64,000 nt of DNA, taken from IMG/VR virus record IMGVR_UViG_2703718787_000017; one strand, 5' to 3'. A program made the position numbers. Origin of the DNA: a virus. Its lineage: Duplodnaviria > Heunggongvirae > Uroviricota > Caudoviricetes. Position 1 is the stretch's first letter. The number at the start of each line of letters is the position of its first letter. Positions 45,001 through 48,000 of the stretch are shown here, in pieces.

Positions 45001-48000
45001 TTTTCTGAAAGCAACAGCACGAAAAAAAACTCCCTTGCGTGGGCTGCAGGTGCACAGTTTAACCTGAATGAGAGTGTTACACTGGATGTGGCTTACGAAG
45101 GTTCCGGCTCTGGCGACTGGCGCACGAGTGGAATTACTGCTGGCATTGGCCTGAAATTCTAACCTGTATCCGGTAACCGTTTACTACCCGCTGTGATGGC
45201 GGGTTTTTTATTGCCCGTACAGGGCAAAAACCGTAAATTATGCGTGGGTGCCTTTCGGCTGATGGCTGGAGGGTGAACCTGAAGGCCTGATGTGGAAAGG
45301 CCCCGAGTCAACTTAACGTTAACCCGAGGCCCTAACACTTCGTACCTTGACAAGTAGAAGGTTAGCGCCTCTCCACTCAGGAGGCAAGCGCTATGTCGCA
45401 AAAATCGCTTATCACCGTCACAATTTGTATGACGGTTATCTTCACTATCTGGATGTTGCACGGTTCGCTGTGTGAGTTCCGGCTGAATTTGTGGGGAGCG
45501 GAGTTTGCGGCGTTCTTACAGTGTAAGCAGTAGGAAAACCGCGACGGGGACGAAAGTCCCCGTCAACTGGTTGCTGAGGTTCAGCCGATATGGCACCCGT
45601 TTCAGGTGAGAGAATGAACGATAAAATTCTCCGGTATATGCAGCGTGTGGTGAGAAATTCCCGCAACCCTGAATTTATGAATGAAGTTAAAGACGCCTGC
45701 CTTAAAAAGCAGGCGTTTTGTTTTGAGGCACCTGATGGCTTTCTGGTGCTGCGTTCTGTGCTCAGTGCTGATGGTATCCCTTATGTTCTGGTGTTGCTGG
45801 GCGTGTGTACGGGGAGTAACAGCGTTGAGCGTTATCTGCCGGAGGTGAAGACATTAACCCGTCTGGCTGGCGGACGTTGGGCTGAATTTCATACGGCAAG
45901 GCGGGGATTTATCCGGCTGGGAAAACGTCTGGGCTTTGAGCGAATGCCGGATGATGAGGATGGCTTCATGGTGTTCAGGATAGCGGTCTGACTGCCACAG
46001 TTTTCATCATCGTGTTTAAACCAACATTGCAATTCACATTCTGACCCTGCTCCGGCAGGGTTTTTTTATTATCCAGGGGGCCATTATGGGTGGAAGTAAA
46101 GGTGGTGGTGATACCAAAGTAAAACCAACAGCAGCGCAAATAGCACAGGAAGAAGTGGCCTGGAAAGGGTGGCAGGATTACAAAAATATCCTCCGCCCGG
46201 CTGAAGATAACTTCATGGAAAAGGTCGATGACCTGAACAGTGAGCAGCAGTACGACAATATCGCTGGCACCACAAATCTGGGGTATCAGAAACAGTTTGG
46301 CGAAGCACGGAAGGAGCTGGCGGGTAATCTTGCTCAGTCCGGTGTTGACCCGTCCAGTGGTCGCTTTAACGCGGTAATGAATGCGAACCAGAGTGATCAG
46401 GTAACCGGGCAGATTGACACAACCACACGGGGGCAGGTATCGCAGGCAGATAAGTATGTTGCCGGGCTACAGGATGTTGCAGCTCTCGGTTCAGGTCAGA
46501 AGGCGGATGCGTTACAGAGTTTTAACTCGCTGGCAGACAGCAGTCTGGCAAAAGCTAAATCGGACGCACAGGCTGCGTTTACGAAACAGCAGGGGCGAGC
46601 CTCTCTTGTTGGCGCTGGTTTGGGTGCGGTAGGTGCATATGCGATGCATAAGGCTGGTGGTAGCGGAGGAAGTGGCGGTGCTAAAACACCGGGCACCGGC
46701 GCTAATGCCATTCAGCATCAGGCTCAGAACTGGAGACTGTGATTATGGAGTACGGTAAATACGAAACACTTGCGAGATACGGTTATACCGGAGCTGCCCG
46801 TCCACAGGGTGACTGGCAGACGTCAGCAGCGCTGACACGCCAACAATACGACGACTGGCGAACCAGATATTTGCCCCGCGTGGCAAGGCTGGCTGACCTT
46901 GGCGAGAACAACAGCCTGATGAATGCACAGCTTGCCCGGGTGGGCGGCCTTGCCACTTCCAGTCTCCGTACAGCGCAGATGGCGCAGGATAACCAGATGG
47001 CGAGATACGGGGTAAGCCGCCCGGATAATCCCGACAGTAATACGCTGGGGTTACGTAATGCCCTGGCAATTGCTGGCGCGAAAAATGGTATCCGTGAAGC
47101 CGAACAGGATCGCCAGATGAACATACTGACGGGGGCTTCTGCACCGGCAAGACAGAAACTGAGTGTTGGCGGACAACTGGTGGCAGCGTAAGGAGGAAAT
47201 ATGGGGTACGGCTTACTGGATATTGCGAATCAGTCACGGCGTGAGGCATTACAGGGAATAAGTGACGCAGACCGACGACGTGAAGAAATTGAGGCTGCGA
47301 ACAAACAGATGGCGGCGCAACAGAAAGCGCAGAACAAGCAGAATATCGGTACGGGCATTGGTACGGGGGCGGCTATTGGCGCATCCGTTGGTGGTCCTGT
47401 TGGTGCTGTTGCTGGAGCAGTAATTGGCGGCATTGCTGGTTCTTTGTTTTAAGGAGTGGTGAATGAGCGGATTTGCACAGGGGTTACTTGCCGGATTCAG
47501 CACGGTTGACCAGGCAATGACCCGTCGTAAGGAGCTTGGTCTGCGTGAAGCACAGCTTGCCCGGCAACAGAAAAATAACGAGCGCGATTTTGAGTTTGCG
47601 CAGTCTCAGTTTGAACATAATAAAAACGTTGATCAGCGGAACTTTGATTACAGAGCCAAAGTTGACGACCGTAATTATGCACTGAAGGAAAGGGAGTTTA
47701 ACGCTAACCAGAATTACCGGAATGCGTCGCTGGGTATGGAGCAGCAGCGACTCCGGATGCAGAAATACAACCAGCGACGGCTTGAGTATAACGATATGCT
47801 GGCGCGCGATCAGCCTGTGATGGCGGCGCTTGGAAAGGCTGTGGATGCTGGCGATCGGGATGCAGCAATGCGTCTTTACGGCCAGTTGTCAGAGGGTAAT
47901 CCGCTGAGGCTGATGGCGAATGATGGCTATGTAGCGAAAGCGGGTCAGGCCGTGAACAACCTGCAAAAAATCTTTGATGACAAGCCAGACAGGGCTATCG

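Follow-up and report, generated by a model that had tools for sequence, protein, structure and literature searches.

In the hok/mok/sok system of plasmid R1, the small Hok membrane toxin is encoded by a stable mRNA in which tac, at the 5′ end, pairs with fbi, at the 3′ end; the mRNA carries ucb and dcb boxes, and its processed form ends in a protective 3′ stem-loop that shields the truncated mRNA from 3′ exonucleases (PMC9841398). A short cis-antisense RNA, composed of a 5′ tail and a terminator hairpin, is expressed from a promoter overlapping the hok Shine-Dalgarno (SD) region, and mutations of the mok start codon abolish toxicity. In Shiga toxin (Stx) phages, the hokW-mokW-sokW module of 933W and Sp5 has been characterised experimentally as a toxin with an antisense antitoxin, to which Hfq and RNase III contribute and which is activated on prophage induction (Takada et al. 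2021, PMC8621323). A third line of work concerns a small phage RNA named 24B_1, EcOnc53 or sRNA108, described as acting in trans on d_ant and sdhB in the manner of a microRNA and, with its ~80-nt precursor, as the first functional "microRNA-size" bacteriophage molecule. The locus described here lies beside the lom gene in a 64,000-nucleotide stretch of viral DNA (Caudoviricetes; IMG/VR record IMGVR_UViG_2703718787_000017), hereafter the window, which resembles Stx2a-converting, 933W-like (Traversvirus) phages. It is probably a Hok-family type I toxin-antitoxin cassette with a Sok-like antisense RNA that is apparently identical with EcOnc53, sRNA108 and the 24B_1 precursor. The locus resembles R1 in each of the toxin, mRNA and antisense-RNA features listed above, and shares with hokW-mokW-sokW the phage family and the type of module; it differs from both in having no mok leader open reading frame (ORF).

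The toxin gene occupies 45393-45533 of the plus strand (ATG at 45393, TAG at 45533) and encodes 46 residues (MSQKSLITVTICMTVIFTIWMLHGSLCEFRLNLWGAEFAAFLQCKQ), against 52 in R1 Hok and 51 in the HokC/D-like toxin of hokW. An original prediction, made by reading the sequence, had described it as a Hok/Gef peptide with an AGGAGG ribosome-binding site (RBS) and an N-terminal membrane helix, and all three elements are present. The SD AGGAGG is at 45379-45384, 8 nt ahead of the ATG; the hydrophobic helix has a Kyte-Doolittle mean of 2.32 (17-residue window, residues 6-22); and Pfam HOK_GEF (PF01848) matches with 33.2 bits, above its gathering cut-off of 22 (E 4e-8), aligning peptide residues 8-44 on profile positions 6-42 of 42. 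The peptide also gives a full-length match to PHROG 251, "MokW-like host killing" (E 2.8e-24), and RefSeq places a "Hok/Gef family protein", WP_000078907.1, at the same coordinates. The best-scoring named subfamily is the NCBIfam HokA equivalog (NF007290), whose 38.4 bits are far under the cut-off of 89; the Hok subfamily NF007279 gives 22.7 bits against a cut-off of 73. Compared with HokA, the peptide is shorter at both ends, and K-12 hokA has an annotated mokA. As K-12 hokA is truncated by IS150, it is unusable as a calibrator, and hokC and hokW were taken instead. Alignment of the peptide with other Hok proteins shows no variation at C12, T14 and E28 and hardly any at C27 and E37; of the five reference sequences in that alignment, HokC was confirmed from the K-12 record. 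Because both cysteines are hard-coded, as in HokA (SLCE ... QCK), TadA recoding would not be needed for this lom-adjacent hok. A search of solved structures found no relative, and no further Hok ORF is present elsewhere in the window.

Comparison of 17 diverged copies of the cassette shows that the ORF is intact in all of them, encoding 45-47 residues, with the ATG and a strong SD (AGGAG or ACGAG) kept throughout. The median dN/dS is 0.27 (94 pairs), and the Hok peptide is shown, at the level of sequence comparison, to be under purifying selection. A 2025-26 preprint catalogue of 32,532 Hok loci (10.1101/2025.08.07.668861) contains the identical peptide as homologue 72_1589, in a high-abundance cluster, and reports its cloning (plasmid LRP157) for an arabinose-induced toxicity assay. 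In that study 42 of 45 homologues were toxic, and 72_1589 is not named among the three that were not (19_179, 60_1482 and 69_1540), so that the induced-expression check of toxicity has effectively been done by others; the preprint states that Mok and Sok were not analysed. The kind of system is already known, with the toxin gene annotated in more than 1700 complete E. coli genomes and an identical peptide in a toxicity screen. The original 933W record and the Sakai reference annotate no gene between lom and the next ORF (Sakai NC_002695.2, 1292387-1292815; L021 8388-8816), even though an intact hok ORF lies there.

The hok mRNA is predicted to start at about 45246, at GGGTGCC, behind a putative promoter at 45211-45239 (-35 TTGCCC at 45211-45216, 17-nt spacer, -10 TAAATT at 45234-45239); K-12 hokC has the same geometry (TATAAT, 6 nt, GGGTGC). 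This promoter agrees with the consensus at 8 of 12 positions, under the threshold of the promoter scan, and a consensus scan over 45100-45800 found nothing; both this promoter and that of the antisense RNA are weak matches that were placed by conservation and comparison. The promoter positions (TTGCCx/TTGCGx/TTGAAA ... TAnAnT) are kept in cassettes with unrelated upstream DNA. The 5′ end of the mRNA corresponds to the tac element GGGTGCCTTTCGGCTGA (45246-45262), which is near-invariant among the 17 copies and begins at position 1 of a match to Rfam RF01794. The Rfam check returned a match over 45246-45404 of the plus strand with an E-value of 2.7e-6, while its 37.9 bits stay below the gathering score of 59; relatives of the locus score 31-43 bits, and the control loci, K-12 hokC and 933W hokW, 118.3 and 113.5 bits (L020 402-554 and L022 603-777). 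RF01794 is named "sok antitoxin", yet in these two control loci it aligns with the sense strand of hok, between the start of the mRNA and the AUG of the toxin gene, and not with the strand annotated as sokC or sokW.

In the minimum free energy (MFE) fold of the full-length RNA (45246-45602), the 5′ GGGUGCC...UCGGCUGA pairs with the 3′ UCAGCCGA...GGCACCC; the 3′ partner of tac is the fbi element TCAGCCGATATGGCACCC (45581-45598), at which homology between cassettes stops. This end pairing, of 15-18 pairs, is found in silico in the MFE fold of 16 of the 17 homologues. If the RNA is cut after its 3′ hairpin, the 5′ end refolds in 14 of 17 copies as a tac hairpin with GAAAGGCCCC (45295-45304), the corresponding ucb-like box being GAAAGGCCCCG (45295-45305), which pairs with GAGGCC in the full-length fold or with tac in the truncated one. 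The dcb-like box GTTAGCGCCTC (45361-45371) is an invariant block, and its 3′ part, CGCCTCTCC (45366-45374), is an anti-SD for hok. Further downstream, UUUGCGGCGU (45504-45513) pairs over a long range with the start-codon region, AUGUCGCAAA (45393-45402), as the 3′ strand of a 10-bp helix; in this helix (helix 9) 95% of cells are paired, and the changes are one-sided only, such that protein constraint could explain them.

The 3′ stem-loop, GACGGGGAC-GAAA-GTCCCCGTC (45543-45564), has 9 of 9 complementary positions and is likely the 3′ end of the processed, translatable mRNA. It had been noticed as a hairpin capped by a GNRA loop; the stem is real and covaries, while the loop is incidental and unconserved, being GAGA, CAAU, UAAU, ACAG or GGCAACU in homologues. 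In this stem (helix 16), 99.3% of cells are paired and four pairs show compensatory changes. Over the whole 17-sequence alignment, 88% of cells are paired, compared with 36-44% in slid-partner controls, and pairs with double changes number 17 against 9.7 expected. The end pairing is represented by helix 1 (98% of cells paired) and helix 2 (83%), of which the outer tac/fbi helix is uninformative for covariation because it is almost invariant. Altogether, the Hok/Gef match, the tac/fbi pairing, the covarying 3′ hairpin and the RF01794 match uphold the original prediction of a hok-like type I toxin locus.

The promoter of the Sok-like RNA, which the first reading had been unable to locate, is now placed at 45387-45359 of the minus strand (-35 TTGCCT at 45387-45382, 17-nt spacer, -10 TAACCT at 45364-45359). 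The predicted RNA runs from about 45351 to 45290, with ends placed within about 5 nt; its unpaired 5′ tail leads into a GC-rich hairpin of 16 bp, after which comes UUUCC. Its fold energy is -31 to -32.5 kcal/mol, against -17 for the sense strand (-32.5 and -17.0 in the window copy), since G-U pairs of one strand turn into C-A mismatches in its complement, and the antisense strand has the more stable fold in each of the 17 copies. Both promoter and hairpin show conservation, with the greatest variation in the 5′ tail.

A short antisense RNA over the hok leader, expected if the locus is of type I, has been detected by others at these coordinates. EcOnc53 was described as an orphan peak in Hfq cross-linking and analysis of cDNA (CRAC) on the minus strand of Sp5 (Tree et al. 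2014), and it maps to ~45304-45355 of the minus strand after a coordinate shift of +142 between genome versions, which was verified with the AsxR probe. In the CRAC data, the ECs1236-ECs1237 spacer holds rank 65 among the intergenic regions, and three of the five samples contain thousands of reads from both of its strands. EcOnc53 was "not detected" by Northern blot (Tree et al. 2014); the probe corresponds to 45352-45386, almost all of which (bar ~0-4 nt) lies upstream of the predicted antisense start. The published 20-nt 24B_1, TAACGTTAAGTTGACTCGGG, matches 45321-45302 of the minus strand exactly and covers the loop and the 3′ arm of the Sok-like hairpin, and the promoter boxes predicted for p24B_1 in Phi24B (TTGACT / CGCTAACCT) are those of the antisense promoter found here. 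A 2021 review equates EcOnc53, sRNA108 and 24B_1 and gives a length of 67 nt by differential RNA-seq and Term-seq. Experiments by others show that an Hfq-binding minus-strand RNA of ~67-80 nt is made from this exact place in near-identical phages, and the published RNA is identical to the predicted one in sequence, strand, promoter and location, i.e., the lom-vb_24B_43 spacer.

This correspondence appears to be new in the searchable literature, as does a Hok cluster without mok. The word "hok" is absent from four papers on 24B_1/EcOnc53/sRNA108 (PMC4426718, PMC4104026, PMC7873438 and PMC10732415), and "toxin-antitoxin" is absent from the last three, the term not having been looked for in PMC4426718. 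Conversely, the searchable texts of Hok papers make no mention of 24B_1 or EcOnc53, and the sole text found with both terms treats hok and 24B_1/EcOnc53 as unrelated examples. The Hok catalogue and the 24B_1/EcOnc53 literature would then describe two halves of one locus without citing each other.

The published view assigns this RNA mainly a trans function, exerted by its 20-nt microRNA-like form on d_ant and sdhB, with hok uninvolved in the phenotypes. It draws on the trans complementation of the phenotypes of a 189-nt deletion, on the recovery of one defined 20-nt form (2223 reads), on weak binding of the 20-mer to an sdhB fragment in vitro (8 +/- 5% bound at 100 nM) and on the binding of the 24B_1 precursor by Hfq (Kd 25 nM). 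The deletion, however, corresponds to 45195-45381 and takes out the entire antisense gene, the promoter of hok with 136 nt of its leader and part of its SD, and half of the lom terminator, while the complementing clone, 45083-45646, contains the entire hok cassette including the toxin ORF. Because the deletion and the clone cover the control region and the whole cassette, effects of the small RNA and of the toxin-antitoxin pair are inseparable, and the reported effects on lysogenisation, induction and burst size are, on present evidence, not assignable to a trans-acting RNA. Moreover, the antisense RNA is fully complementary to the hok leader, and the cassette is conserved outside Stx phages, in P2-like prophages and plasmids. 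Trans and cis roles are not mutually exclusive, yet a mainly trans-acting RNA with hok as a bystander seems unlikely to us. A more far-reaching reading, to which we give slightly less than even odds, is that 24B_1/EcOnc53/sRNA108 is the Sok-type antitoxin of an overlooked Hok toxin gene, in which case the deletion phenotypes would come from the loss of the toxin-antitoxin control region, the 20-mer would be a decay fragment, and the hok RBS would be switched without mok by an anti-anti-SD box. An origin of the 20-mer by RNase III cleavage of the hairpin was also considered; inspection of the predicted stem does not support it, as the two ends of the 20-mer, at nt 31 and nt 50 of the predicted RNA, show no stagger across a single helical position. 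Given the extent of the deletion and of the clone, claims that a phage "microRNA" directs the choice of lysogeny in Stx phages call for re-testing with separated alleles.

The locus is not hokW-sokW itself. In 933W that module lies at 58460-58734 on the other strand, ~13 kb away, with annotated mokW and sokW, the former in frame with the toxin gene, and the hokW-sokW primers are absent from the window. Phages 933W and Sp5 carry two Hok modules, whereas the window phage has the lom-adjacent one only. In the hokW-sokW deletion study the lom-adjacent module was still present, which may explain partial phenotypes.

A further difference from R1, hokC and hokW is the missing mok. All three frames were searched, the known mokC and mokW lying in the frame of hok, and no start codon is conserved in any frame among the 17 copies. 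In each of the 17, a stop 4-9 codons ahead of the ATG shuts the hok frame itself; in most copies (those of 933W, E. coli SJ3 and a plasmid included) no ATG, GTG or TTG reads into hok in any frame, and where such codons are present they are conserved neither in position nor in frame. As positive controls, the same script recovers the annotated in-frame ATG of mokC and mokW, 12 nt after the start of GAGGC. The segment at the mok-SD position of hokC and hokW, GAGGCCCTAAC (45326-45336), is present without a start codon after it. A cryptic mok with a non-standard start codon, translated and coupled to hok as in the canonical system, would account for the conservation of GAGGCC at this position, and the window copy does have a TTG, at 45347, from which 42 codons can be read across the start of hok. 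This TTG is 17 nt away from GAGG, however, and the 933W copy, at 97% identity, lacks it; the conservation of GAGGCC is explained by its pairing partners, so that a cryptic mok strikes us as highly improbable.

These pairing partners are found within the leader. The conserved GAGGCCCUAAC (45326-45336) is complementary to GUUAGCGCCUC (45361-45371), in homologues it shows only A-to-G changes, each of which keeps pairing with U, and the RF01794 consensus structure contains the same GaGGC/GCCuC helix. What looks like a conserved stop codon in CCCT(AA/GA/AG)C is better explained by A-to-G changes that retain pairing with U. Because there is no mok leader ORF, the RBS of hok itself, and not translational coupling, would be the point of control; we propose, on the basis of folding models, that it is controlled directly by means of an anti-anti-SD box. 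In this model, the full-length mRNA starting near 45246 would be locked by pairing of tac with fbi, with the hok RBS held within an 11-bp bipartite hairpin and the AUG paired with 45504-45513. Trimming of the 3′ end to the stem-loop at 45543-45564 would free tac, which would then capture the ucb box; this capture would release GAGGCCCUAAC to pair with the dcb/anti-SD box and loosen the hok RBS. The antisense RNA, by pairing with 45290-45351 including GAGGCCCUAAC, would return the anti-SD to the RBS and would probably trigger decay by RNase III.

Predicted energies go in the direction expected from this model. On average, opening the hok RBS costs 13.8 kcal/mol in the full-length RNA, 9.8 in the truncated RNA and 13.0 in the truncated RNA with the Sok target masked, the direction of the two changes being as expected in 16 and 14 of 17 copies, respectively. 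In the window copy, masking the antisense target lifts the cost from 8.7 to 12.6 kcal/mol, as a folding proxy for antisense binding, and a sliding-mask scan shows that the cost is raised (by 2.7-7.0 kcal/mol) only by masks over 45262-45360. Opening energy was used in place of the unpaired probability of the SD, which proved insensitive (0.20, 0.28 and 0.21 across the predicted states). The mok-free cluster would then offer a natural case for the translation and silencing of a Hok mRNA without leader-peptide coupling.

Several points weigh against a Hok cassette silenced by its antisense RNA in this manner. The hok RBS is mostly paired in every predicted state, and repression by the antisense RNA is a prediction from folding. 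Conservation of the antisense promoter is confounded by sense-strand roles, because the same bases also form the hok SD and the dcb box. The RF01794 score falls short of its gathering threshold where hokC and hokW reach 113-118 bits. Other cassette copies have their own terminator 25-50 nt past fbi, while Stx-phage copies, unlike R1, have none directly after it. With regard to expression, reverse transcription-PCR on a Phi24B lysogen saw the 80-nt RNA only after induction and not at time 0, which is unexpected for an antitoxin; CRAC did recover antisense reads from uninduced Sakai cultures. Finally, loss of the region speeds up induction and increases the progeny, an effect opposite to that of deleting hokW-sokW, which halves the released phage.

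The limits of the cassette are provided by its copies in unrelated contexts. Homology starts at the -35 box (45210), directly after the lom terminator, and stops at fbi (45598), which delimits a unit of ~390 bp, 45210-45598, ending with GGCACCC. The interval first reported, 45240-45575, lies inside this unit; the functional unit is larger, because the homology in unrelated contexts spans 45210-45598. Elsewhere, copies of the cassette with 75-84% identity follow ogr in P2-like prophages adjacent to serS, lie between the tail genes of a different prophage, and also occur in an O157 island and on pUMNK88_Hly, an IncI1 plasmid; one record has three of them in tandem. The tandem copies, of two allele types, adjoin serS in a 1.2-Mb record labelled as a plasmid (L012 1211-2507). 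Within E. coli, ~1750 of 5426 complete genomes carry at least one cassette, in up to nine places per genome, and the lom-adjacent cassette is present in 198 phage records compared with 63 for hokW. A scan of one genome per species gave five loci, all in Escherichia and Salmonella apart from two in suspect assemblies. The latter are a Planococcaceae metagenome-assembled genome (L014) and a Vagococcus sp. assembly (L016), in which E. coli-type hok cassettes follow a P2-like ogr context, probably on contaminating enterobacterial contigs. The Stx prophage of E. coli SJ3 (L004 1661-1801) carries another Hok allele, also next to lom, with a protein 54% identical and conserved flanks; the coding core of the cassette has apparently been exchanged there by recombination.

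This distribution also bears on whether the cassette is an inert relic that lost mok, never translates hok natively and hitch-hikes on mobile elements. Such a fate would fit an RBS predicted to be paired in all states, the reported inactivity of K-12 chromosomal hok loci (cited literature) and the mild phenotypes, the only ones obtained by deletion. It is at odds with the purifying selection on the peptide, with the preservation of the ATG and the strong SD in every copy, with the abundance of the cassette in E. coli genomes, and with the fact that both strands are transcribed and Hfq-bound in vivo; we regard it as improbable. The present locus is best explained as a Hok cassette that entered a 933W-like Stx2a phage as a moron, at a point between the terminator of lom and the late gene that follows. 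Candidate roles for the phage are prophage retention, the timing of lysis or induction, and the exclusion of other phages.

The 441 bases at the hok locus are 100% identical to those of Shigella phage Ss-VASD and E. coli phage P13771, and also to those in the Stx prophage of complete O104:H4 genomes. Upstream, lom occupies 44428-45162 (Pfam Ail_Lom, E 6e-32) and is followed by an intrinsic terminator on the plus strand (45186-45210; an 8-pair stem, then TTTTTT), which lies outside the cassette and forms its left boundary. The locus had been placed between lom and ejection-protein genes; lom is confirmed by Pfam, while PHROGs list the downstream genes as of "unknown function", so that the ejection label stays tentative. 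Two minus-strand ORFs, suspected to be artefacts, do behave as such: they have no family matches, are absent from the RefSeq annotation, and are interrupted by stops in the copies of 933W (97% identical) and SJ3.

For the ORF after hok, RefSeq gives a start at ATG 45590 (45590-45991), which overlaps the fbi element. Its real start is probably 45614, because PHROG 610 aligns to it from residue 9 only and because the annotation of phage P27 begins the gene at the ATG equivalent to 45614, after GGTGAGAGA; with this start, fbi therefore lies outside the coding sequence. Inside this gene, on the plus strand, a terminator-like hairpin followed by TTTTGTTTTG (45690-45725) is an uncertain candidate for the 3′ end of the primary hok transcript. 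It consists of AAGACGCCTGCCTT/AAAGCAGGCGTTTT and then GTTTTG, and resembles a terminator whichever strand is read. In the lysogen, the moron transcripts of hok and lom might stop at it, with Q antitermination allowing read-through.

Elsewhere in the window, Rfam matches above the gathering score comprise isrK, C4 antisense RNA, four copies of sRNA-Xcc1 and STnc100, at 14504-14686, 15196-15279, 16105-16194, 21378-21591, 61172-61257 and 61708-61792. Further downstream of hok, an ORF of 2806 residues (48759-57179) belongs to PHROG 616, of unknown function, and contains a segment like DarB-like antirestriction proteins (E 4e-26).

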